DNA from: a virus
Taxonomy: Duplodnaviria > Caudoviricetes
DNA: 64,000 bases
Virus record (IMG/VR): IMGVR_UViG_3300021387_000661
Span: 96,001-160,000 of that record
Strand: one strand, 5' to 3'
Shown one piece after another: positions 4,961 through 39,074 of the stretch. The notes beneath the pieces were generated by a model. It saw only the letters and a list, made by a program, of their open reading frames with translations. It made no database searches and was not told the origin of the DNA. Within the stretch, counting starts at the first letter, position 1; each line of letters opens with the position of its first letter. A program made the translations under genes and the position numbers.

Positions 4961-5683
4961 TTATTTATCACTCCAATCTCTTAACTTCTTTATAACTTTT
5001 GGTATAATTGGATTTCTTACTACTTCATCATCATTAAAGTGACAATAACCTATATAATCTTCATCTTTGAAAATATCTATAATATGTTGTAGGGCTGATT
5101 GTTTTCTTTTCTTTTCCTGGTCAAAATCAACTTGCTCAATATCTCCAAGGAATATCATCTTACTTTCATCACCTATTCTTGTAATTATTGACTTGAATAA
5201 ATTCATTGTAATATTCTGTGACTCATCAATTATAATATAAGATTTATCCAGTGTCACGCCTCTGATATATGCTAATGGAAGTACTTCTACTTTCTTTTCT
5301 TTGAATAATCTTTCTACATTATCTTCACTTTTGAGCATTTTCTTCATATTACCTTTATAAGATATAATATGTGGCTCCATTTTTTCATCAATTGTTCCGG
5401 GGATGTATCCGATATCTTCATTTGGCGTAGATATTACTGATTTACATAAAATTATTTTTTCATATCTTTTTGCCAGAACTCCCAACAGACCTTCATAAAG
5501 AGCTATGTATGTTTTTCCTGACCCTGCGATTCCATCGCAAATTGTTATGTCATGGTTTCTGATTTCACTTAAGAAAAATTTCTGTTTTGGATTCCTACAT
5601 TTAAGCGGTAAAAGAGTTATTGGATTTTTATCTACTATTATTTCAGGAATTTGGGGTTCTTCAGATTTTTTCTTTTTTGGCAT
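4961..5683 (-). CDS. phoH: PhoH-family ATPase
   Basis: GIAGSGKT, IGYIPG, LAYIRGVT, IIDESQN, GDIEQVD and VVRNPII motifs. Confidence 0.92.
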   Translation of the reverse strand: MPKKKKSEEPQIPEIIVDKNPITLLPLKCRNPKQKFFLSEIRNHDITICDGIAGSGKTYIALYEGLLGVLAKRYEKIILCKSVISTPNEDIGYIPGTIDEKMEPHIISYKGNMKKMLKSEDNVERLFKEKKVEVLPLAYIRGVTLDKSYIIIDESQNITMNLFKSIITRIGDESKMIFLGDIEQVDFDQEKKRKQSALQHIIDIFKDEDYIGYCHFNDDEVVRNPIIPKVIKKLRDWSDK

Positions 5684-5712
5684 ATAATTTAAAATATTTT
5701 AGTATATAAAAG

Positions 5713-5742
5713 AAAAAAAAAGGTGGGACAAAAATCCCACCT
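5713..5742 (-). terminator. Terminator after tail tube gene
   Basis: AGGTGGGA...TCCCACCT stem. A-run on plus strand gives a U-tail on minus. Confidence 0.7.
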
Positions 5743-5747
5743 ATCTT

Positions 5748-6338
5748 TTATTCATAGACAGGAAGTCCAACAGTCAAATCATCCCAGCAGTCTGCCTGGA
5801 AGGTCATTGTAATTTCATTTGCTTCATTACCACTGTCATAGTTGCGGTCATTCATACCTGTTGGCTGTCCAGGGATTACATTGATACAAGTAATCTTTCT
5901 CCAGATGGAACCATCACGGTTGTATTCAATGATGACCATAGAGCCACAGTAATCTTTCTTAAGACCATATGCACCTGTTGCAGGGTTGAAAGACTTGTTG
6001 TACCATTTACGGAGAGTTGTATAGATGTAGTTCTCATTAGAATCATTCAAGTTCAAGGAGAATGTCATCTGTAATTCAAGGTGTGTCTGTTCTGGAACAC
6101 CAAGGTAAACTCTTTCTGCTTGTTTGTATTTCTGGATTACAGTACCCATTGGAGGGTTAATACCATCAAGACCAGAAATGGATCTTACATGCTCAAGAAG
6201 AAGCTGTGTTGTTAAGGATGCACCCTCTTTGTCACCATCGAGTTCTGGAGGAAGGATAGTAACCTCAAAAAAGGCAGGATTTACAACTTCCCACTTGTTA
6301 ACTGCGGCATGTGAATTTTTAAAATGGCTAAGTGACAT
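5748..6338 (-). CDS. Tail tube protein (T4 gp19-like)
   Basis: 196 aa. LRKWY...NPATG...KKDY and ITMTFQADCW motifs. Divergent from sheath. Late motif at 6393-6400 on minus strand. Confidence 0.8.
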   Translation of the reverse strand: MSLSHFKNSHAAVNKWEVVNPAFFEVTILPPELDGDKEGASLTTQLLLEHVRSISGLDGINPPMGTVIQKYKQAERVYLGVPEQTHLELQMTFSLNLNDSNENYIYTTLRKWYNKSFNPATGAYGLKKDYCGSMVIIEYNRDGSIWRKITCINVIPGQPTGMNDRNYDSGNEANEITMTFQADCWDDLTVGLPVYE

Positions 6339-6481
6339 ATTTTATGTTTTTTTATTTTATATACTATGTAAAGACTCCGCCTTTACACACATTATTTATG
6401 AAATCATATAATGGTTTGGAACATAATTTCAAAAAACAAGTTTTCATAAATATCTTATAAATATAATAAAAAGTAAAAATT

Positions 6482-9400
6482 ATGGCTTTAGATGCAGAAT
6501 TAATTAATTTGAAATCAGCAGGTACTTATCGTTTTGAGAGAGATAAGTCTGAAATTTCAAATAATGGTGCAATTACAATCTCTAATATGAGATTGATTGT
6601 CGGTTTTAGCAAGATGGGTCCATTCAATACAGTAAGATTGGTAACTTCACCAGCACAGTTTATCAAACTCTATGGTAACATTGACCGTTCACTTGAGAAG
6701 AAGGGTTCTTTCTTCCATAGGAGTGCCTTGGTTGCCTTGAGTGCAGGTCCTATTCTTTGCTTGAATCTTTTGAATCTTGATCCTGATAAAGACCAGGTGG
6801 TTGAGAAATCATTCTCTGTAGGTTCAACAGATATAAATAAAAAGTCAGTCACACTTCCTTTACAGTCACTTTATAATACAGATAAATTCTGGTTTGCAAG
6901 TGATGAGGCATATCTTGATGCCGTTGATAAGATTCTTGGCACAGCAAATCCACAAGAAGATGGAGCTCAAGTTGATTGGAAAAATGGTATTCTTCATTTG
7001 ACCAATATAGGTAAGAAACCTGTTTCTGTTTTAATTAAGAAGGCAAGTGATTATGCTTCAAAGGGTTATCAACTTACTCTCAATGAGTGGTATGGTGAGG
7101 GTAATGTCCCTGAATATCTCAATGGTACTTCATATGTAAGTGATTATCTTGTTGAGGTTTATGTTGTTGGTGGTGATTTCGGTCCAGCTCTTAAGAGTGA
7201 TACAATTTATTCAGGTGTTGACTTGGATGATGATAATATTAATGGTAAAGGAGATGCACTTACAATGTTCTCAATCTATACAGAAAAGGATGAAAATAAT
7301 GTAGATGTTAAAATTCCTTACAAGAGATTTTCTTCAGATATTGTTTATCAGTCATACTTTGATGAAGATGGATTTATCAGGGGTGAAAATGATGCAAATC
7401 TCATTAAGTTCTTGAATCTTCCTTCAGTTGACCTTCGTGCAAAGTATGTTGGTTCATTGATTCCTAATTTTGTTGACAAACTTGGTAGAAATATCTGGAT
7501 TCAGAAGTTGATAAATGATGACACTGACACTATTGGTCTTCTTTGTACAGAGAATGTTGAATTACTTGAAGATGTAGATTTTGATGGTGATTTCATTAAT
7601 GAAAAGATTGATTTGCTTGGGCATAATATCTTTGCAAAATATCAGGAAAAACTTAAAGGTGGTGAATCCATATCATTTGATTTCTTGGGTTATAATTTTA
7701 CATATACAGATGATTTCCAGGAAGTTATTATAGATGGAAGTCTATATAAAAAATTACCTCCTCTTGAGGATGAGGTTATTGAATCACAATCACATCCATA
7801 TCCATTTAAGTGGGAAAAAATAGATGAAAGTGAAGAGGGTACTGATGAATATCTATATTCATCTTCATCAGTTTTGACAGTTGGACAGAGAGTTTATGAC
7901 ACCCCTGATGGTGATGATAGTTCAGATTCAGATGTTGATTATGAACATATTGTAGATTCTATTAAAAAGAGTGTAAAACCTATATTTACAGAATTTGCTG
8001 AATTAGGAAATTCAGAATTTTATCTGGATGCACAGAATAACAAGCCATATGTATATAGAGACAATGAAGTTGTTCTTGACAAGAAAGCAAATGTAAATGT
8101 TGGTGATTATTTCCTTTCTGACTCTGATAATACACATTCAAGAATCACAAGAGTTGTTGAAGTAAAATATGTTTATAATGATACTGCAGTATATGATAAT
8201 GAAACAGGTACATATACAACATTAGCAGAGAAGGCTGGTATCCTTGTAGTTTGTGCTGACAAGATTTACAAGACTGCTCATAGTGTTCCTAATAATGTTG
8301 TAATTAAGATTACACCTATTGATAATATTGCTGATAGACTTCAGTGGGTATGTCTCAATGGCTTCCAGGTAAGGAAGGCAGCAATGCCTAATGGTACAAA
8401 TGAGCGTCAGAATGAGATTCTTGATATGCTCCGAGAGAATCCAGAATATCCTTCAACAGTATCAAATCTCTACAAGGCACTCATTGACCGTGACTATGTA
8501 CAGTTCAGATATCTGGTTGATTCATTTGGTTTTGGTCTTGAGGAAGAATGTAAGAAGGTTTATACCCAGTTATGTAAGGGTAGAAAATCAGCATTGGCAA
8601 TTGTCAACTGTCCTTCACAGCTTGATTTCAAGAAGAGTCTTGATCCTTCCTTCACAAACAAGGTTGGTGGTGTTGAAGCAGAGTTCATTGCCAAGGGTGG
8701 TGACCTTTCAAAGAATCCTTCATTCTTGTTCAGTCTTCCAAAACTTGAGAATGGTGCTTCTTATGGTGCTTACTACTATCCATATTTGAGAATCACTGAT
8801 TTGAGTGCACCTAAATCTGTACCTCCAGCAGCATATGTGTCTAACCTTTATATCCAGAAGTATAATAGGGGATTTGCATGGTCTATTGTTGCTGGTCAGA
8901 AGAGGGGAGTCATTTCAGGAAACCAGGTGGTTGGTGTTGAGGCAACTCTTATCCATGACAACAGAGACTGGTTGGAACCAATGGGTATCAACTCCATTAT
9001 CTGGGAGCAGGGTGTCGGTGTTGAGATTTATGCAAACAAAACTGCAAAACAGACTCCTGTTTCAGCACTTTCTTCAATCCATGTCCGTGAGGCTGCTATC
9101 TATATCCAGGATGGTGTAGAAGATATTTTGAGAAGATATGTATTTGAGTTCAATACTGCACAGTCAAGACTTGAAATCAAGACATTGGTTGATGAGTTCC
9201 TTGAGACAATGAAGAACAATGGTGGTCTTTATGATTTCAGAACAGTTATGGATACCACTAACAATACAGCAGAGGTCATTGATAACAATATGGGTGTCAT
9301 CGACATTTATGTTGAAGTTGTTAGAGGTCTTGAAATCATTGCTCAAAGACTCACAATTCTTAAGACTGGTGCAATTGCTGCTGGTGGATTTGACGAATAA
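6482..9400 (+). CDS. Tail sheath protein (T4 gp18-like) with large central insertion
   Basis: SAGTYRFERD, VGFSKMGPFN, VPPAAYVS, AGQKRG, IHVREA and FEFNTAQSR. Late motif at 6445-6452. Confidence 0.92.
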   Translation: MALDAELINLKSAGTYRFERDKSEISNNGAITISNMRLIVGFSKMGPFNTVRLVTSPAQFIKLYGNIDRSLEKKGSFFHRSALVALSAGPILCLNLLNLDPDKDQVVEKSFSVGSTDINKKSVTLPLQSLYNTDKFWFASDEAYLDAVDKILGTANPQEDGAQVDWKNGILHLTNIGKKPVSVLIKKASDYASKGYQLTLNEWYGEGNVPEYLNGTSYVSDYLVEVYVVGGDFGPALKSDTIYSGVDLDDDNINGKGDALTMFSIYTEKDENNVDVKIPYKRFSSDIVYQSYFDEDGFIRGENDANLIKFLNLPSVDLRAKYVGSLIPNFVDKLGRNIWIQKLINDDTDTIGLLCTENVELLEDVDFDGDFINEKIDLLGHNIFAKYQEKLKGGESISFDFLGYNFTYTDDFQEVIIDGSLYKKLPPLEDEVIESQSHPYPFKWEKIDESEEGTDEYLYSSSSVLTVGQRVYDTPDGDDSSDSDVDYEHIVDSIKKSVKPIFTEFAELGNSEFYLDAQNNKPYVYRDNEVVLDKKANVNVGDYFLSDSDNTHSRITRVVEVKYVYNDTAVYDNETGTYTTLAEKAGILVVCADKIYKTAHSVPNNVVIKITPIDNIADRLQWVCLNGFQVRKAAMPNGTNERQNEILDMLRENPEYPSTVSNLYKALIDRDYVQFRYLVDSFGFGLEEECKKVYTQLCKGRKSALAIVNCPSQLDFKKSLDPSFTNKVGGVEAEFIAKGGDLSKNPSFLFSLPKLENGASYGAYYYPYLRITDLSAPKSVPPAAYVSNLYIQKYNRGFAWSIVAGQKRGVISGNQVVGVEATLIHDNRDWLEPMGINSIIWEQGVGVEIYANKTAKQTPVSALSSIHVREAAIYIQDGVEDILRRYVFEFNTAQSRLEIKTLVDEFLETMKNNGGLYDFRTVMDTTNNTAEVIDNNMGVIDIYVEVVRGLEIIAQRLTILKTGAIAAGGFDE

Positions 9401-31667: not shown

Positions 31668-32912
31668 ATGGATAAATGTAGATACATAGAATTATTTGCT
31701 GGTGTGGGTGGCTTCCATGTTGGACTTGACAGGTCTGACAAGGATTTTTATAAGTGTGTGATGGCAAACCAGTGGGAACCAGGTGCTAAAGACCAATTTG
31801 CAGCAAATATATACAGGAAGAGATTTCCCAATGATTTGTTGGTAAATGATGATATTTGTAAGGTTTCTGGGAAAGACTTGGAAGCAGACCTTATGGTTGG
31901 AGGATTTTGCTGTCAGGATTACAGTGTAGCAAACAATAAATCAAGAGCATTAGGTATTGAAGGAAAGAAAGGTGTTCTCTGGTGGGAAATCATTAGACTC
32001 ATCTCTGAAATGAAAGAGAAACCTAAATATCTTCTTCTTGAGAATGTTGATAGGATGATCATCTCACCTGCACAGCAAAGGGGTAGGGATTTTGCTCTCA
32101 TCCTACAATCATTGGTCAATCTTGGGTATAATATTGAATGGAGGGTCATTAATGCTGCTGAATATGGATTTCCCCAGAAAAGAAAAAGAATATTCCTTTT
32201 TGCATTTCTTACTGGAGAATTTGAAGTAAAGAGTCCAGATTCCTGGTTATATAAAGAAGGAATCCTTGCAAAAGCATTCCCAGTAAAAGAAGATATTGAA
32301 ATTGGTCTTTGGGGACTTGATAGAAGAAAATTGGATTCAGACCTGGTTTATATATCAGACCATTTCAATGAGAATAATATCATAGACCACCCATTTGAAA
32401 ATGCAGGAGTTGTAATAGATGGTTATATTTCTACTACAAAGGTCAAAACAGACTATTCTGGGTCATTTATGACACTGGGAGGTGTTCTTGCCCAGGGTGA
32501 TGATAGAAAGCTCATTACAGAAGACTATTATCTTTCTGATGATGAGATTGAAAAGTGGAAGTATTCCAAAGGAAACAAGTCATTTGAGAGGACAAATAAA
32601 GATGGATATACATACACTTACACAGAAGGTGCAATGCCTTTTCCTGACCCTCTTGATAGACCGGCAAGGACATTGATAACAAGTGAGGTATCAACAACAC
32701 CAAACAGATTCACCCATATCATAAAAGACCCAGAAACTGGTAAATTAAGGCGTCTAATCCCTCTTGAACTGGAAAGGATACAGATGTTCCCAGATAACCA
32801 CACAGAGGGTATTACAGACAAAAAGAGAGGGTTTCTGATGGGTAATGCACTTGTATGTGGAATTGTGGAAAGAATTGGTAAGGAATTGAAGAGTAGAATT
32901 TATGATTTATAA
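31668..32912 (+). CDS. DNA (cytosine-5) methyltransferase, M.Sau3AI-like (likely GATC)
   Basis: ELFAGVGGF, ANQWEP, GGFCCQDYSVA, ENVDR..SP..QRGRDF, QKRKRIF, PARTLITSE and MGNALV. All ten motifs present. Confidence 0.9.
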   Translation: MDKCRYIELFAGVGGFHVGLDRSDKDFYKCVMANQWEPGAKDQFAANIYRKRFPNDLLVNDDICKVSGKDLEADLMVGGFCCQDYSVANNKSRALGIEGKKGVLWWEIIRLISEMKEKPKYLLLENVDRMIISPAQQRGRDFALILQSLVNLGYNIEWRVINAAEYGFPQKRKRIFLFAFLTGEFEVKSPDSWLYKEGILAKAFPVKEDIEIGLWGLDRRKLDSDLVYISDHFNENNIIDHPFENAGVVIDGYISTTKVKTDYSGSFMTLGGVLAQGDDRKLITEDYYLSDDEIEKWKYSKGNKSFERTNKDGYTYTYTEGAMPFPDPLDRPARTLITSEVSTTPNRFTHIIKDPETGKLRRLIPLELERIQMFPDNHTEGITDKKRGFLMGNALVCGIVERIGKELKSRIYDL

Positions 32913-32922
32913 ATTGTGAATT

Positions 32923-33252
32923 ATGGCAACCTATTTAGAATATCTGTCATTTAAATCTCGTTTGCCCTGGTACAAGAAGATTCTGTTTCCTTTGTTTTTG
33001 AATAAGAAGGAATATGATGAATATATCATGATAACAACAGAGGAAAAGACTGAACTGGATAAAGCCAGGGATCATTATTTCTTCTGTTGGAATGAGTATA
33101 TGAAAAATCCCACATATCAAACAAAGGTGAGTATGGAACATGCAAGGGATATTGTCAAGATGTATTTAAGACAGGAAAATAGGTATTATGAAGATACTTA
33201 CAGGTCAAATGAAGATGTGAATTATTTATTAAGAAGAAATATATTAGTATGA
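32923..33252 (+). CDS. Hypothetical protein
   Basis: ORF in tightly packed operon. Confidence 0.6.
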   Translation: MATYLEYLSFKSRLPWYKKILFPLFLNKKEYDEYIMITTEEKTELDKARDHYFFCWNEYMKNPTYQTKVSMEHARDIVKMYLRQENRYYEDTYRSNEDVNYLLRRNILV

Positions 33253-33731
33253 AAATAACAGATAAATATGTGTTCTTCTGGAAGGAAGACCCATTTTGTA
33301 ATTTCACCAGGTGTGAGATAAATTATGATGGGAATATGTTCTCATCATCAGAGCAGATGTTTATGTGGTTCAAGGCAGATTATTTTAAGGATTATGAAAC
33401 TGCTGAAAAGATTCTGAAAACAAATGACCCCGAGACTGCAAGAAAACTTGGAAGGATGGTGAAAAACTACAATGATGCAGAATGGAATAAGGCAAGAGTT
33501 TGGTATATGTATCTGGTTGTATTACAAAAGTTTATGCAGAATGAGGATTTGAGAAAAAAACTGTGTGATCCGAAGTATGATGGGAAACAGTTTGTAGAGG
33601 CTGCTTATTATGACAGGATTTGGGGAATAGGATACAATGAGAATGATGCTCTCATCACACCAGAGTATAAATGGGGAAGAAATGAACTTGGAAAGGTACT
33701 CAATAAGGTAAGAGATTTTTTAAATAGATGA
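33249..33731 (+). CDS. NADAR (YbiA-like) family protein
   Basis: SSEQMFMWFKA, KLGRMVKNY, KFMQN, VEAAYYDRIWGIG and GRNELGKVL. Confidence 0.9.
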   Translation: MKITDKYVFFWKEDPFCNFTRCEINYDGNMFSSSEQMFMWFKADYFKDYETAEKILKTNDPETARKLGRMVKNYNDAEWNKARVWYMYLVVLQKFMQNEDLRKKLCDPKYDGKQFVEAAYYDRIWGIGYNENDALITPEYKWGRNELGKVLNKVRDFLNR

Positions 33732-34261
33732 AAGTAACCACATTGGATGAAATAATTGAGAAGGATGTTCCGGAAGAACTCTACTTCAAGAAGAAGGACT
33801 GGGAGAAAAGGAAATATCTCAGGACTACTCTTCCTATGATGTGTACTGTTGATGGAGATGATGTCTATCTGTTTGCTGAAGGAATCAAACCTCCACAAAT
33901 CCTGAAACAGAAAAGGACAGAAGATGAGAAGTTGAGAAGACACAGGTTCGGAGACAAGGGAAAGAAGTTTGGAAAAGGTGTCTATGCTGAACCAACAGGA
34001 GATGGATATTCTAATACACTCACCACATTCTCAATGGACAACTATGTGTGGGACAGGAACTACAAAGTAAGGGAACTGACAGACAGGGAGGCATTCAGAC
34101 TGATGGATGTGGATCCAGATGATGTTCAGAAGATATTGGATGCTGTTCCATCTAAATTCAGAAAAAAACTTGCTGGGAACAGTATTGCCGTCAATGTGAT
34201 GACTGAGATATTCAGAAATTTGTTTAATGAAAGGGTAAATCCTGAAAAACCATTATTTTGA
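33728..34261 (+). CDS. C5 methyltransferase C-terminal subunit beta-1 (TRD plus motifs IX-X)
   Basis: DGYSNTLTT TRD, RELTDREAFRLMD (IX) and LAGNSIAVNVM (X). No motifs I-VIII. Confidence 0.85.
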   Translation: MKVTTLDEIIEKDVPEELYFKKKDWEKRKYLRTTLPMMCTVDGDDVYLFAEGIKPPQILKQKRTEDEKLRRHRFGDKGKKFGKGVYAEPTGDGYSNTLTTFSMDNYVWDRNYKVRELTDREAFRLMDVDPDDVQKILDAVPSKFRKKLAGNSIAVNVMTEIFRNLFNERVNPEKPLF

Positions 34262-34263
34262 TT

Positions 34264-34542
34264 ATGGAAAATGCTGTTTATTTTAAATGTAGAAATTTCA
34301 ATTTAGGTAATTGGAATGATATATTAAATATTCAAAAATCTTGGCCAACAGATGAAGTTATTATATTTAATAAAGGTACAGAAAATGAATGTGAAGTGAA
34401 ATATATGACATATTCAAGGATTGATAAATATCCAATATTTAAACTCATCAAAGGTGAGAATAAAAATGTTGAATCAGGTGTATCTGGTTATATAAATGAT
34501 ACTTTGTTTGAGTGTAAAGATGTTGTTATTATTGAAGTATGA
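34264..34542 (+). CDS. Hypothetical protein
   Basis: ORF in operon, AT-rich. Confidence 0.55.
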   Translation: MENAVYFKCRNFNLGNWNDILNIQKSWPTDEVIIFNKGTENECEVKYMTYSRIDKYPIFKLIKGENKNVESGVSGYINDTLFECKDVVIIEV

Positions 34543-34772
34543 AACCAGAAGAATTAAAAAATGGACTTGTTGTTGTCCATGTAAAGCATAACAGACTTTA
34601 CATTATTGTTGAATGTAATATGATGATGAAGGATTCTGTAAATGGATGGGTTGATGCAGTAATTTACAAACCACTGTATGATAATGAATATAACTGTTTT
34701 GTCAGGGAGAAACAATCATTCTTAGATGAATTTAAAATTGTAGAACTTAAATCCTATGTTTATAAATTTTAG
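34539..34772 (+). CDS. DUF1653-like protein
   Basis: HVK..LY, VIYKPLY and FVREKQSFLDEF pattern. Confidence 0.55.
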   Translation: MKPEELKNGLVVVHVKHNRLYIIVECNMMMKDSVNGWVDAVIYKPLYDNEYNCFVREKQSFLDEFKIVELKSYVYKF

Positions 34773-34799
34773 AATTTGAAACTTATATATTAAAGTAAT

Positions 34800-35291
34800 A
34801 TGAAACATTTAGTAGTAATTGCAGAAAAAGAAGAATTGAAACTTGTTGAGCAATTGGGATATAATCATTATCCTGTTCTCATTACAGGTGTTGGTGCATT
34901 GAATGTCATTGAGGCATTGAAGGATATACCAAGGGATACAGTTATCTATAATATTGGATATGCTGGTAGTAAAAACCTTGAACCTGGTAAATTTTATGCC
35001 ATTGACAGGGTTTCACTTTATCATCAGAATGTAAAGTATGATGAACCATCATATTCATTGGGTTATATTCCTTGGGCAAAAGAAGTAGAACCTGAAGAAG
35101 ATTCATATATGAGGCCTATAAAATGTCTGACAGGAACTGATTTTGTACTTGAATCAAACATTGAAGATTGTGTGTTTGATATGGAATTGGCATATATCAA
35201 GGTATTGGGGTTTGAAAATGTCATTGCATATAAGTATGTAAGTGACAATCTTGACCTCAATCAATATAGAATCAAATTCAATGAGGAATGA
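34800..35291 (+). CDS. Nucleoside phosphorylase / MTA-SAH nucleosidase-like protein
   Basis: ITGVGALN, NIGYAGS, TGTDFV, DMELA and KYVSD match the PNP/MTAN motif order. Confidence 0.7.
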   Translation: MKHLVVIAEKEELKLVEQLGYNHYPVLITGVGALNVIEALKDIPRDTVIYNIGYAGSKNLEPGKFYAIDRVSLYHQNVKYDEPSYSLGYIPWAKEVEPEEDSYMRPIKCLTGTDFVLESNIEDCVFDMELAYIKVLGFENVIAYKYVSDNLDLNQYRIKFNEE

Positions 35292-35619
35292 TGTCCATAT
35301 TGTGAAGGTTGGACCCCATCAGCAGGATACAGTGATGTACACTGACGGGGTCTGCCGCTGTATCTGTGTGGGTCAGCACAACAACACCAACAGTTACCTC
35401 AAAATCTTGGATAAGGGAAGAATCAGGAAGATGACCACCAAGGAGATAGGGAGACTGATGGGTGTGGATGATTCTGATATTGATAAGATGACAGGTGTCC
35501 TTGCACCTGGTGTGGTCAATTCACTCTTTGGTAATTCCATTGTGGTGGATGTGATGACAGAGATGTTCAGGGAACTTTTTTATGAAGACAGGAAATTAAG
35601 TGAAATTAAATTGTTTTAA
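35281..35619 (+). CDS. C5 methyltransferase C-terminal subunit beta-2 (different TRD plus motifs IX-X)
   Basis: HQQDTVMYTDGVCRCI TRD-like segment, IRKMTTKEIGRLMGV (IX) and FGNSIVVDVM (X). Confidence 0.82.
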   Translation: MRNDVHIVKVGPHQQDTVMYTDGVCRCICVGQHNNTNSYLKILDKGRIRKMTTKEIGRLMGVDDSDIDKMTGVLAPGVVNSLFGNSIVVDVMTEMFRELFYEDRKLSEIKLF

Positions 35620-35621
35620 AT

Positions 35622-35798
35622 ATGTTGACACAAGAAGAAAAGAAGACAATATGCTTGTTGTTGAGAAGGGAAACTGCTTGTGGAATGATGGATGCTTCAC
35701 GGGCAATTGATGAGCTAATAAAAGCACTTAAAATGAAACCTAAATACATTATGGATGCACCACAAAACATTAAAATAACTTGGGAATATTATGACTAA
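35622..35798 (+). CDS. 58-aa protein resembling the EF-Ts N-terminal UBA-like domain
   Basis: Manual translation gives LRRETACGMMDASRAI. Confidence 0.45.
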   Translation: MLTQEEKKTICLLLRRETACGMMDASRAIDELIKALKMKPKYIMDAPQNIKITWEYYD

Positions 35799-36045
35799 AG
35801 CAGAATATTTTACAAATAAATATCATTGTCATATAAGTTGTACTCCTGAAATTGATAAATGCAAGAATTGTCCTATTTTGAGAGTACTTAAAGAAATATA
35901 TGGGGAGGAAAAAGTATGACAAAAGAAGAAGCAATCAATGAATTGAGGGAATTACTTAATTATTGGAGATACATCAAGATGTATGATAATAAAAGTGAAC
36001 AGGATGCTGTTGAATTTGCAATAAACTATATGGAGGATAAAGTGT

Positions 36046-36246
36046 ATGACTAATGATGAAATAACAAGATACATCCAGGAGAAGTGGAGTAACTATTCAA
36101 GGGGACTGGCAATGTCCTTTGCATTCAGGAAAGACAAGAACTATACTTTTGAGGATGTGAAGGATGCATTCTCATCTGGTGCCTGGGAAATAATCCAGCT
36201 TTTGATTAAGAATAATATTAATAAAGAGGATTTGAAATATGAATAA
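36046..36246 (+). CDS. Hypothetical protein
   Basis: ORF in operon. Confidence 0.55.
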   Translation: MTNDEITRYIQEKWSNYSRGLAMSFAFRKDKNYTFEDVKDAFSSGAWEIIQLLIKNNINKEDLKYE

Positions 36247-36517
36247 AGAAACTATTGACAGACTGGTGAAACAGTACGGAGACAGATGGATGCTCAGAGA
36301 CCTTGACTTCTTCCCTGAGAAGTTGAGTGATGCTTGTAGGATATATCCTTACAAGGTTGAGACTTTTATGAAAGTGGTCACTGGTAATGGGTTTATCTCT
36401 TTTGAAACTGAAAAAGAAGCTCTTGATGCAAGTATCCAGATTTATGAGAAAGTACTTCATAAACAAGTACCATATGGTCTTCTTCACAGGTATTATCTTA
36501 CAGATTCTGAGAAATAA
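36239..36517 (+). CDS. Hypothetical protein
   Basis: ORF in operon. Confidence 0.6.
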   Translation: MNKETIDRLVKQYGDRWMLRDLDFFPEKLSDACRIYPYKVETFMKVVTGNGFISFETEKEALDASIQIYEKVLHKQVPYGLLHRYYLTDSEK

Positions 36518-36534
36518 TTTGTTATATTTATAGT

Positions 36535-36756
36535 ATGAAGAAGTACTACAGGATCAGGAAGATGACACCCAGGGAATGTTATAGATTAATGGGTGTGGAG
36601 GATACAGACACAGATAAATTATTTGAAACAGATTTGAAAGACTCAAATCACTATAAACTTGCAGGTAATTCTATTGTTGTGGATTGTATGGTTCATATGT
36701 TTGACAAGTTGTTCTTTAACAGGAATGAACCTAAAAAGAAAATTACATTATGGTAA
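36535..36756 (+). CDS. C5 methyltransferase C-terminal subunit beta-3 (motifs IX-X only, no TRD)
   Basis: IRKMTPRECYRLMGV and YKLAGNSIVVDCM. Own promoter motif at 36519-36530. Confidence 0.88.
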   Translation: MKKYYRIRKMTPRECYRLMGVEDTDTDKLFETDLKDSNHYKLAGNSIVVDCMVHMFDKLFFNRNEPKKKITLW

Positions 36757-37487
36757 AGAAATATACAAAAGAAAACCCATTGAGAGTGTTCACAGCATTC
36801 TCTGGTTATGATTCCCAGTGTTTGGCACTCAACAGACTGGGGATTGATTATGATTTGGTTGGTTGGTCAGAGATAGACCCTGCTGCCATCAAGGCACATA
36901 ATGCTCTGTTCCCACAGTATGCTGATAGGAATTATGGTGACATCTCCAAGATTGACTGGTCGCAAGTTCCTGATTTTGACCTGTTTACTTACAGCTTTCC
37001 TTGCACGGATCTGTCAAATGCTGGAAGACAGGCTGGATTTGATGAAGGTTCTGGTACCAGGTCATCACTTCTTTGGGAGTGTAGAAAAGCAATATCAGTA
37101 AAGAGACCTAAATATATGATGCTTGAAAATGTGAAGGCTCTTCTTTCAGATAAATTTGTTGATCTTTTTAAAAAATGGTGTGAAGAACTTGAATCATATG
37201 GTTATGTGAACTATTATGATATTCTCAATTCAAAAGATTTTGGTGTGCCTCAATCCAGAGAAAGGGTATTTGTGATCTCCATTCTCAAGACTGAAGATGA
37301 ACCAGAACCTTATTATGAGTTCCCAAGACCAATTCCACTCAAGAAGACAGTTGAAGACTTGTTGGAAGATAATGTTCCTGAAAAGTATTATATGAAGCAG
37401 GAGGTCACTGACAGATATGTTCAGACTATGAGTGTAGAACATTCAAAGGATGAGAGTGTTGAACAGCCAGATGAAGAACTATGGTAA
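36750..37487 (+). CDS. C5 methyltransferase catalytic subunit alpha (motifs I-VIII only)
   Basis: FSGYDS (I), SEID, GDI, SFPCTDLS (IV), ENVK (VI) and PQSRERVF (VIII). Ends after the V..KYY anchor with no TRD, IX or X. Confidence 0.9.
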   Translation: MVKKYTKENPLRVFTAFSGYDSQCLALNRLGIDYDLVGWSEIDPAAIKAHNALFPQYADRNYGDISKIDWSQVPDFDLFTYSFPCTDLSNAGRQAGFDEGSGTRSSLLWECRKAISVKRPKYMMLENVKALLSDKFVDLFKKWCEELESYGYVNYYDILNSKDFGVPQSRERVFVISILKTEDEPEPYYEFPRPIPLKKTVEDLLEDNVPEKYYMKQEVTDRYVQTMSVEHSKDESVEQPDEELW

Positions 37488-37882
37488 AGAATTATAGTAA
37501 CCTCACTCTTGAAGAAATAGAATCCAAGATTGAGAAGAATGATGATATATTACATAAAATCTGGGATTCTGATGGTGGTGATTCCTGGGAAAAGTACAAG
37601 GTAAAGTGTCAGCCTTACTGGGATGATAATGAAGCACTTTATGCAGCAAAATCATTAAAAGAAACCCCGGAAATGAGTCCATTCAGTGATTTGGACAGGA
37701 AGTGTTTGATGACAATAGATAAATTTAAAGCTTATTGTGAATTTGGAGCTATTATGGACTCTGATGGTTTTGGGTATTATGCCACTGATAAGGAAGTGTC
37801 CAATATTGAGGCCAGTCCAAGAGCATTTGAAAAGGGAATTATCAGACCAGATTTTACACATATTTGTTGGTATAATAAGTGA
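37481..37882 (+). CDS. Hypothetical protein
   Basis: ORF coupled to alpha subunit, ending DGFGYYA..THICWYNK. Confidence 0.65.
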   Translation: MVKNYSNLTLEEIESKIEKNDDILHKIWDSDGGDSWEKYKVKCQPYWDDNEALYAAKSLKETPEMSPFSDLDRKCLMTIDKFKAYCEFGAIMDSDGFGYYATDKEVSNIEASPRAFEKGIIRPDFTHICWYNK

Positions 37883-37883
37883 T

Positions 37884-38225
37884 ATGAATAAGAAAGCAAT
37901 AAATACCTGTGAGGACGGAACTTGCAGAACCATTGTTGCCTGGTATGCCAAAGGCGGACGAAGTAATTTCGCAGCTTGGAATGGACCAGACAGGTTTTTA
38001 ATGACAGCAGTCCTTGAAGAATATGACCCATTTGAGTGTATGGAACTTAAAGAAAGATATATAGTTGACCACCAGGGATATGGCCAGGCAAATCCAAAGC
38101 CAGGGTCTCATATGGTCATTTCATCCAGTAAGGATGTATGTACTACTTTAACTACCTTCTGTGGTCTAAACAAAGCAGTAGTTGAGGTTTATGAAGATGA
38201 TGAAAATTCAGATAGTGATAAATAA
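37884..38225 (+). CDS. Stand-alone tandem target-recognition-domain-like protein
   Basis: Two TRD-like units: INTCEDGTCRTIVAWYAK...TAVLE and DVCTTLTTFCG..KAVVE. Confidence 0.6.
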   Translation: MNKKAINTCEDGTCRTIVAWYAKGGRSNFAAWNGPDRFLMTAVLEEYDPFECMELKERYIVDHQGYGQANPKPGSHMVISSSKDVCTTLTTFCGLNKAVVEVYEDDENSDSDK

Positions 38226-38261
38226 ATTTGTTATTATTAAGAATTTATAATTAAATTGATT

Positions 38262-39011
38262 ATGGAAACTGAAAAGAAAGTATCAAGGAACTCTGAAATA
38301 TTCAGGGATGTACTGGAAAGTAAGGGTCTGACATATGCAGATGTATATAGAATCCTCAATTGTGCCGGGATAACTAAATATAATTATATCTTGGATAAGG
38401 ATGGTAATTTTATTGAACAGGAGAATGAAAAATATCTTGGTAAGAGGAGTTTTCATAGTGCTGATGATGGTGCAAGAACACCATTTGAATGTAAAGTGGA
38501 CTGTGTAGTTGGTAATATCCAGGAAGATTTGTTTTGTCTTGATAATAGGGATTTTACTCCAAATTCTGAAGCAACAAACATAAATGTGAAATCAGATAGT
38601 GGGATTACGACAGAAAAACTTGATCTCATTCATAAACCTACTGGTGCCGAGGTTGAATTAAAGACCAGTAGATGTATGGAAATAAATGAGAAATATAATA
38701 CTGTTATATACAAACATCGTGATGCGAAGTTCGCAGAATATTTGAGGAAAGGACACATTATGATTGTTGATTTTCCATATCTTAAAAAAGTTGCGGTCTT
38801 TGATTATAGGAACTTCAAGGATAAGGAAAGGGGAATTTTCAAGGGATCTGTCAATGTCATTAAACCAGATTGGGTTGATGATTGGGGAAAGCATTGGGAC
38901 ATTGTATCGATATGGTCTGGGTTGCTGATTGATTATGATATGATGAAAGGAGGTAATTATAAAATAAGCGATAAGGTTTCATATTTGGTAAATAGTAAAG
39001 GAGTCAAGTAA
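38262..39011 (+). CDS. Putative PD-(D/E)xK (restriction-like) nuclease
   Basis: GNIQE...KLDL...EVELKTS spacing. Confidence 0.45.
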   Translation: METEKKVSRNSEIFRDVLESKGLTYADVYRILNCAGITKYNYILDKDGNFIEQENEKYLGKRSFHSADDGARTPFECKVDCVVGNIQEDLFCLDNRDFTPNSEATNINVKSDSGITTEKLDLIHKPTGAEVELKTSRCMEINEKYNTVIYKHRDAKFAEYLRKGHIMIVDFPYLKKVAVFDYRNFKDKERGIFKGSVNVIKPDWVDDWGKHWDIVSIWSGLLIDYDMMKGGNYKISDKVSYLVNSKGVK

Positions 39012-39074
39012 TTGACTTCTTTTTTTTTAAGATTTTGTTATCTTTATACCATAAGAAACTATAATAAGTTAAAT

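Follow-up and report, generated by a model that had tools for sequence, protein, structure and literature searches.

Catalytic, motif IX–X and target-recognition parts of a candidate multispecific C5 cytosine methyltransferase are encoded by separate genes in a giant phage

We analysed a 64-kb window (bases 96001–160000 of the 344,746-bp virus record G000, IMG/VR IMGVR_UViG_3300021387_000661; CheckV completeness 94%; window G+C approximately 34%) that contains an island of genes for pieces of a C5 cytosine methyltransferase (C5-MTase). We propose that these genes encode a multispecific phage C5-MTase, of the subfamily with multiple target-recognition domains (TRDs), in separate polypeptides that would be assembled in trans, with different partners giving several specificities. 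We put the probability of this reading at about 0.6. Across related contigs, the island is a conserved 'methylation island' of a giant-phage clade known only from metagenomes. A near relative of the window was absent from the GenBank phages, and a nucleotide search of these with the island gave no match. The pieces are a catalytic chain (alpha), three carriers of motifs IX–X (beta1, beta2 and beta3) and a free TRD protein, encoded by the following open reading frames (ORFs).

33728–34261, + strand: beta1, 177 aa; hinge segment, TRD and motifs IX–X, without catalytic motifs; PF00145 positions 258–323
35281–35619, + strand: beta2, 112 aa; one short TRD unit and motifs IX–X; PF00145 positions 269–322
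36535–36756, + strand: beta3, 73 aa; motifs IX–X only; PF00145 positions 271–322, E 1.1e-9
36750–37487, + strand: alpha, 245 aa; motifs I–VIII, hinge and acidic tail, without IX and X; PF00145 positions 6–225, E 1.6e-51
37884–38027, + strand: unit A of the free TRD protein, aa 1–48; terminal strand AVLEEYD
38028–38225, + strand: unit B of the free TRD protein, aa 49–113; CTTLTT motif, docking strand AVVEVYEDD and acidic tail

The coverage of the PF00145 profile (324 positions; cut-off 22 bits, exceeded by each of beta1, beta2 and beta3) showed a clean division between motifs I–VIII and motifs IX–X. The translation of alpha runs through FSGYDS (a motif I variant), FPC, ENV and QSRER to the hinge TVEDLLEDNVPEKYYM, the acidic tail and the stop; the catalytic features of a C5-MTase (motifs I–VIII with PC, ENV and QxRxR) are thus all present on alpha, as a preliminary description of this DNA, made from the letters alone, had stated. 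Motifs IX–X are missing from alpha and present on the three ORFs starting at 33728, 35281 and 36535, which the same description had named as their carriers (PF00145 from positions 258, 269 and 271, respectively, to 323). The IX–X modules of beta1, beta2, beta3 and beta4 (a fourth carrier outside the window, see below) were 38–54% identical and shared a common GNSI[AV]V..M motif. The variable N-terminal parts of beta1, beta2, the TRD ORF and beta4 showed no significant mutual similarity, and beta3 consists of IX–X only, in line with the previous view that two of the betas have unrelated TRD-like N-termini and the third has none.

The free TRD ORF (37884–38225) had no family in Pfam or PHROGs and carries no catalytic motifs. 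A short hydrophobic strand followed by acidic residues (for example IEIYDKEE, VEVYESE or VLEVDGDE) closes most free TRDs, and the TRD protein has such an ending twice (AVLEEYD and AVVEVYEDD), so that it consists of two TRD units in one chain, as first described. In addition, units A and B were separate genes of 58 aa and 69 aa in one related genome (G004). Among 25 homologues of the free TRD, unit A was nearly invariant and unit B was variable. Unit A matched the variable region of a single-chain enzyme of L020 (BLASTP E 3e-4) and also the free mini-TRDs of L014, L026 and L056, and the free TRD family matched the free TRD ORF that follows a fused core in L052 (hhalign probability 80%, E 1.4e-5). 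Stand-alone proteins of the free TRD formed 75 clusters, and longer proteins containing it were not found by a word-based search, which is weak. Protein or DNA searches with the free TRD and the L014 mini-TRDs detected nothing.

To place these pieces, we surveyed 47 viral contigs holding alpha homologues. Single-chain relatives of alpha were found in approximately 24 of the 47, some of them 570–704 aa in length with up to about six tandem TRD units, and approximately 14 contigs had the enzyme split into alpha and beta genes, a layout also present as an adjacent gene pair in Streptococcus Javan prophages of GenBank. Four contigs carried beta3 and alpha as one permuted chain, and the remaining five (L011, L012, L013, L049 and L055) were island-type relatives. 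The closest homologues of alpha in GenBank phages were contiguous genes. Two of the long single chains (L041 5983–8112 and L030 5983–7713; 571–704 aa, about six tandem TRD units) are probably highly multispecific C5-MTases of uncultured phages.

The single-chain protein P0004 (376 aa) was 56% identical to alpha over residues 2–218 and 40% identical to beta1 over residues 194–369, the latter aligning with beta1 residues 5–169. Since its hinge (residues 194–218) aligned with both the alpha tail and the beta1 N-terminus, alpha and beta1 overlap by approximately 25 residues. Similarly, the N-half of the single-chain protein P0172 (322 aa) was 60% identical to alpha and its other part 44% identical to the IX–X part of beta2; by eye, beta2 begins in this comparison about where alpha ends, and its N-terminus (M-x-N-D-[VI]-H-I-V) was common to all relatives. 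The variable part of beta1 matched one TRD unit (residues 407–477) of the 704-aa single-chain enzyme of L041 with E 7e-7, and that of beta2 matched the enzyme of L038 with E 1e-3. In all, four mutually unrelated TRD parts matched single units of multi-TRD single-chain relatives; the TRD parts of the window, together with the mini-ORFs of other phages, matched single internal units of enzymes of 400–704 aa with E 1e-3 to 1e-20. An exhaustive HMMER search found 1576 homologues of beta1, many of them stand-alone proteins of 130–215 aa and some of them single-chain MTases. Beta1 had no match among PDB sequences; modelled alone, it reached an AlphaFold2 pLDDT (predicted local distance difference test) of 62, and a Foldseek search of the PDB gave nothing below E 1. 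As modelled, the small domain with its helix would probably not fold stably in isolation.

Four of the split contigs carried 3–6 mini-ORFs of 43–99 aa between alpha and the IX–X carrier, each mini-ORF corresponding to one TRD unit.

L014, 6814–7633: mini-ORF array
L035, 2502–3222: mini-ORF array
L047, 5710–6432: mini-ORF array
L056, 6614–7683: mini-ORF array

These mini-ORFs mostly matched single internal units of multi-TRD chains (E 1e-5 to 1e-20), and nine of the 24 scored were without a match at E < 0.01. Runs of G7–G9 were present inside all four arrays, and the arrays with such runs may be phase-variable; no poly-G runs were found in the window or its giant-phage relatives.

In the four contigs with a permuted chain (L023, L026, L028 and L052, region 5544–7181 in the last), the equivalents of beta3 and alpha form a single protein of 287–335 aa that begins with MGKQYRIRK and lacks a TRD, and small TRD-like ORFs flank it on both sides. 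Residues 1–61 of beta3 were 52% identical to the N-terminus of the 287-aa chain of L052, which runs on into motifs I–VIII. In the window the gene order is permuted and beta3 and alpha are two ORFs, so that there is no circular permutation within one chain. Close relatives of the permuted-core phages differ from one another by fusion or deletion of TRD units.

Next to this natural fusion stands the arrangement of the genes themselves. The stop of beta3 overlaps the start of alpha by 7 nt (ATGGTAA, read as 'LW*' and 'MV'). The same 7-nt overlap forms the junction between alpha and the TRD gene in G002, G003, L072, L074 and L075, in which the 133-aa ORF lying there in the window is missing; this ORF was present only in the window and G001. 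The five ORFs are intact, as previously noted, but they are not all separated by unrelated genes as had been thought, since beta3 overlaps alpha, and the one ORF that parts alpha from the TRD gene was inserted there. From this layout, we take beta3 and the TRD gene to be the cognate partners of alpha, coupled to it in translation, and the proposal that they are free alternatives is not supported.

A genome-wide habit of using ATGGTAA (30 occurrences on the + strand and 3 on the − strand) was considered and rejected, only 2 of the 30 being gene junctions, both flanking alpha. In the 64-kb window, ATGGTAA was observed at just two gene junctions (36750 and 37481), both beside alpha. In the relatives L058, L059, L063, L061, L072, L074 and L075, every ATGGTAA junction lay next to an MTase module or next to an ORF inserted alongside such a module, among them the junction between an N6/N4-MTase gene and beta1 in L074 and L075. 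This overlap may act as a coupling signal, or it may be a scar left by recombination when modules were shuffled.

We then modelled the complex of alpha, beta3 and the TRD protein, with the TRD protein as the partner. The ipSAE (interaction prediction score from aligned errors) was 0.64, compared with 0.11 for the best of three controls; 51 of 78 solved complexes and 2 of 108 mismatched pairs also reached this mark. The model runs agreed in at least 75% of contacts. TRD residues 97–105 were paired with beta3 residues 2–10, and TRD residues 83–94 (the CTTLTT segment) touched alpha residues 167–171 (QSRER, motif VIII). The modelled contacts correspond to the canonical small-domain geometry, and the good score of the model may therefore reflect likeness to solved single-chain MTases. 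The model supports binding of the TRD protein to alpha and beta3 as a prediction, and with the phages in which a fused beta3–alpha chain lies beside free TRD genes it lends weight to the three-chain form that had been raised as a possibility. In conjunction with the fused beta3–alpha chains and the conserved 7-nt overlaps, the model leads us to regard beta3, alpha and the TRD protein as quite probably one enzyme.

The conservation of the island was examined in relatives obtained from IMG/VR by searches with alpha and beta1 (G001–G005) and via distant TRD homologues (L072, L074 and L075). The order MT1 (a complete single-chain C5-MTase), beta1, the 163-aa gene where present, beta2, beta3, alpha and the TRD gene was kept in G001–G005, L072, L074 and L075, and at least eight related giant-phage contigs share the island. 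Its proteins were 50–93% identical among relatives, with ORF lengths and N-termini preserved, and the most compact version was that of L072, with six abutting genes. All five ORFs were intact in the window and in the relatives. The ratio of nonsynonymous to synonymous substitution rates (dN/dS), calculated pairwise against the window by the Nei–Gojobori (NG86) method at a dS of 0.4–2 or saturated, was 0.045–0.095 for beta1, 0.07–0.20 for beta2, 0.08–0.27 for beta3, 0.09–0.13 for alpha and 0.09–0.10 for the TRD gene. This low dN/dS of every piece together with the high dS excludes neutral decay, and purifying selection on all of the pieces agrees with what had been supposed. A further beta, the fifth kind, was present in one relative (L074): P0248 (131 aa) combines a novel short TRD with an IX–X part 73% identical to that of beta3 of the window; beta content thus varies among relatives, as the swapping model predicts. 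With the separate unit genes of G004 and the dN/dS range of 0.045–0.27, the expected picture of a conserved split with variable beta and TRD content and dN/dS below 1 was obtained.

The genome also contains a second split pair.

G000:C1:172527–174835 (L003 127–2435): alpha2 and beta4, second split C5-MTase pair, outside the window, 36 kb downstream

In alpha2 (614 aa), the catalytic Cys of motif IV is the exact site of an intein that contains a LAGLIDADG domain (SSP|CFVAGT...VHN|CQSFS), and beta4 (155 aa) follows alpha2, joined by an ATGA overlap. A fusion of alpha2 and beta4 in G001 was refuted by the ORF listing, in which they are separate genes with a 121-aa ORF between them. In the genome, only alpha2 and beta4 represent the simple case of one alpha and one beta side by side. 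The preliminary description had assumed one catalytic subunit and overlooked both alpha2 and the complete enzyme MT1. MT1 belongs to a different C5-MTase subfamily: it was 31% identical to alpha, and its IX–X part only 21–28% identical to those of the betas. The census of G000 and G002 (each 94% complete) gave one complete MTase, two catalytic halves (alpha and alpha2) and four IX–X carriers, and no further alpha-like remnant was found in the two genomes by searches with PF00145 and alpha. Consistent with what had been claimed, not every beta has an alpha of its own. All four IX–X carriers are under selection and none can act without motifs I–VIII, so that with two catalytic halves either a catalytic chain is shared by more than one carrier or some of the carriers have a role outside methylation. 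From the census, the intact alpha-compatible IX–X modules and the single-chain relatives, we infer that beta1 and beta2 would share alpha (or alpha2).

In the mechanism that we propose, alpha would be the catalytic large domain (I–VIII) without its closing helix, beta3 would give motif IX and the motif X helix, and the free TRD protein would give two DNA-reading units. Beta1 and beta2 would be alternative small-domain chains, each with its own TRD fused to its own IX–X. The pieces would join non-covalently, the motif X helix packing onto alpha and the C-terminal strand of the TRD pairing with the strand that opens motif IX, as a beta-hairpin cut at the turn, with the acidic TRD tail facing the basic N-terminus. 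Each partner set would generate 5-methylcytosine at a different sequence, and the effect would be the protection of phage DNA from several host restriction systems.

Several observations weigh against this proposal. In 24 single-chain MTases, the variable regions gave no match to the profile of the free TRD family (hhalign probability 2%), and PDB sequences gave no credible one. The TRD protein alone gave an AlphaFold2 pLDDT of only 47; the TRD chain within the complex model was also low at 51, and the modelling covered a single combination, alpha with beta3 and the TRD protein. As for the other betas, alpha2 and not alpha could be the partner of beta1 or beta2. Approximately 25 hinge residues of alpha are repeated in beta1, so that beta1 did not arise by cutting the gene of this alpha. 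Compact relatives couple beta1 to MT1 or to an N6/N4-MTase gene and not to alpha, and in one relative (L068) a deletion has removed alpha, beta3 and the TRD gene but left beta1 intact.

The last three of these points favour the most serious rival, namely that only the coupled sets (beta3, alpha and TRD; alpha2 and beta4) methylate DNA, and that beta1 and beta2 are conserved for another role, perhaps as sequence-specific DNA-binding proteins, regulators or competitors that block or retune an MTase. Other genes separate beta1 and beta2 from alpha, which lies 2.5 kb downstream of the former and 1.1 kb downstream of the latter; neither was ever coupled to alpha, beta1 was coupled to MT1, the NADAR gene or the N6/N4-MTase gene, and beta1 is more conserved than alpha. 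On the other hand, both beta1 and beta2 retain motifs IX–X with the GNSI[AV]V helix, for which the only known role is closing the cofactor site of the large domain, and the single chains closest to them are ordinary MTases in which the N-half is alpha-like. Pfam and PHROGs gave no DNA-binding or other further family for either. As to the repeated hinge, overlapping fragments complement well in published experiments (PMC3404938). Beta1 is also independent of MT1, since L075 keeps beta1 without MT1. Altogether we consider this rival less likely than assembly of the betas in trans on a shared catalytic chain.

The contig L068 (Logan SRR14369273) showed two further features. At 8001–8684, a fusion joins the first 57 residues of beta2 to the C-terminal region of the next gene beyond the TRD gene, and MT1, the N6/N4-MTase gene, the NADAR gene, beta1 and the 163-aa gene are kept intact; this is one contig, and an assembly chimera is possible.

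Joining of the pieces into one chain by split inteins, trans-splicing, group I introns or programmed frameshifting is a highly improbable alternative. Inteins are indeed common in these genes, interrupting the motif IV Cys of alpha (G004, L072, L074 and L075), MT1 (G001 and L072) and alpha2 (G000), and the pieces overlap by 7 nt in another frame. However, alpha, the betas and the TRD protein had no match to a Hint or intein family, and such inteins as occur are contiguous and are placed within motif IV in other copies. The alpha tail aligns with the single-chain hinge and the N-termini of the TRD protein and betas with TRD or motif IX, leaving no space for Hint or intein blocks. An Rfam scan of the whole window gave no family at threshold, group I intron included, and the junction ACTATGGTAA is no slippery heptamer. 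Simple read-through of the gene order IX–X, I–VIII, TRD cannot yield the canonical chain, and in the window the 133-aa ORF separates alpha from the TRD gene.

That the pieces are neutrally decaying debris of contiguous MTase genes broken by mobile elements is hardly credible: the GenBank homologues closest to alpha are contiguous, the island is riddled with inteins and inserted ORFs (unrelated ORFs separate beta3 from alpha in G001 and G002, alpha from the TRD gene in the window and G001, and alpha2 from beta4 in G001; an N6/N4-MTase gene before beta1 in L068, L074 and L075), and the TRD gene after alpha in G004 has a frameshift and a deletion, but every piece has a dN/dS of 0.05–0.27 at near-saturated dS, a dS of 0.4–2 excludes the relatives being one recent clone, lengths and starts are identical in at least eight contigs with stop–start overlaps preserved, and the free TRD forms 75 clusters of stand-alone proteins.

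The pieces described above are accompanied by other genes; the + strand carries nearly all window genes from approximately 31.6 kb on.

31668–32912, + strand: MT1, complete single-chain C5-MTase, first gene of the island; PF00145 positions 2–323 of 324, E 1.2e-55
33249–33731: NADAR-domain gene (PF08719, E 2e-39), between MT1 and beta1; its stop overlaps the beta1 start
34800–35291, + strand: 163-aa gene; its end overlaps the beta2 start; conserved and preceding beta2 in most relatives
37481–37882, + strand: inserted ORF, 133 aa, between alpha and the TRD gene; phrog_14149, of unknown function; not part of the enzyme

MT1 was 70–88% identical among relatives, with a dN/dS of 0.06–0.13. The NADAR gene was found in L068 and missing from most relatives, and it may serve in counter-defence by reversing ADP-ribosylation. 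The 163-aa gene (dN/dS 0.14–0.29) had no match in Pfam, PHROG or PDB sequences; by eye only, its product looks like a putative short PNP/MTA-SAH nucleosidase (purine nucleoside phosphorylase/methylthioadenosine–S-adenosylhomocysteine nucleosidase). Directly after the ORF at 38256–39011, a hairpin with an 11-bp stem followed by a T run (38997–39022) was the best terminator-like element of the region and may mark the end of the transcription unit of the island. The scan for promoters and terminators showed no enrichment over shuffled sequences.

C5-MTases are textbook single-chain enzymes, and to our knowledge only two natural two-chain cases are usually cited. M.AquI is a published example, an enzyme of two chains with the break between them in the variable region (Karreman and de Waard 1990; Pinarbasi et al. 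2002; after the accounts in PMC3404938 and PMC5944983), and M.EcoHK31I is another published two-chain C5-MTase (PMC3404938, PMC5944983). In M.AquI, the smaller chain comprises the rest of the variable region and motifs IX–X, and the alpha2/beta4 pair and the Javan prophage pair are divided exactly so. This type of division, with motifs I–VIII and the start of the variable region on one chain and the remainder on the other, was found for alpha against beta1 or beta2 and for alpha2 against beta4. In contrast to M.AquI, the island has three IX–X carriers per catalytic chain, one of them without a TRD, and the TRD makes up a third polypeptide; some of the partners lie apart, and their genes stand in permuted order.

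The SPR, phi3T and rho11s MTases combine one core with several independent TRDs that have their own targets, protecting phage DNA from several restriction systems. For Bacillus phages, multispecific MTases that carry their TRDs in tandem are known (Trautner et al. 1996, cited in PMC12707154). Under our proposal, the island would resemble them in serving several TRD modules with one catalytic core, and the uncultured single-chain relatives of alpha have up to about six such units in tandem. In these Bacillus-phage enzymes all TRDs are in tandem in one chain, whereas the TRDs of the window are spread over three chains, two of them with their own IX–X; only units A and B share a polypeptide.

Natural circularly permuted C5-MTases (M.BssHII, M.Alw26I, M2.Eco31I, M.Esp3I and M2.BsaI) have IX–X before motif I and the break in the variable region (PMC5944983), as do, in one permuted chain, the equivalents of beta3 and alpha in L023, L026, L028 and L052. 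The known permuted enzymes are single chains that keep the TRD, whereas the permuted core described here is TRD-less and is divided into two chains in the window. Inactive N- and C-terminal fragments of M.SssI, M.MpeI, M.HhaI, M.BspRI and M.BsuRI, overlapping or not, assemble in vivo (PMC3404938, PMC5944983). These are laboratory constructs with approximately 4% activity in crude extracts, in contrast to the split of the window, which is natural, conserved and under selection. In Type I restriction–modification systems, which belong to the N6-adenine class, the catalytic subunit takes its specificity from an exchangeable HsdS, and variation arises by hsdS recombination. The separate exchangeable specificity subunit is a likeness to the island, and the differences are the class of enzyme and the standing set of co-expressed alternatives proposed here. 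In the literature searched, we met no account of a natural C5-MTase made up of three or more chains, nor of free TRD proteins or surplus IX–X subunits.

A broader view, to which we give even odds, takes in the mini-ORF arrays, the permuted cores flanked by TRD-like ORFs and the island alike: dispersed multispecific C5-MTases may be widespread, with a TRD-less core served by a standing library of free or IX–X-linked TRDs. If this is true, each module would dock through a conserved strand at its C-terminus that bears an acidic tail, the core would be sometimes permuted and sometimes in two chains, and this clade would be a variant with several IX–X carriers. One catalytic chain would then provide four or more target specificities in a combinatorial manner, each gained or lost with one small gene.

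Fragments of this kind are currently annotated as 'hypothetical protein' or partial methylase, and predictions of phage methylomes therefore miss them. Split or permuted M.SssI and M.MpeI engineered toward programmable methylation have shown poor solubility and activity (PMC3404938, PMC5944983); if our reading is true, the phage pieces would be possible ready-made parts for programmable cytosine methylation. It would also mean that the TRD is a truly autonomous protein module, and that phages can evolve anti-restriction specificity one small gene per step.

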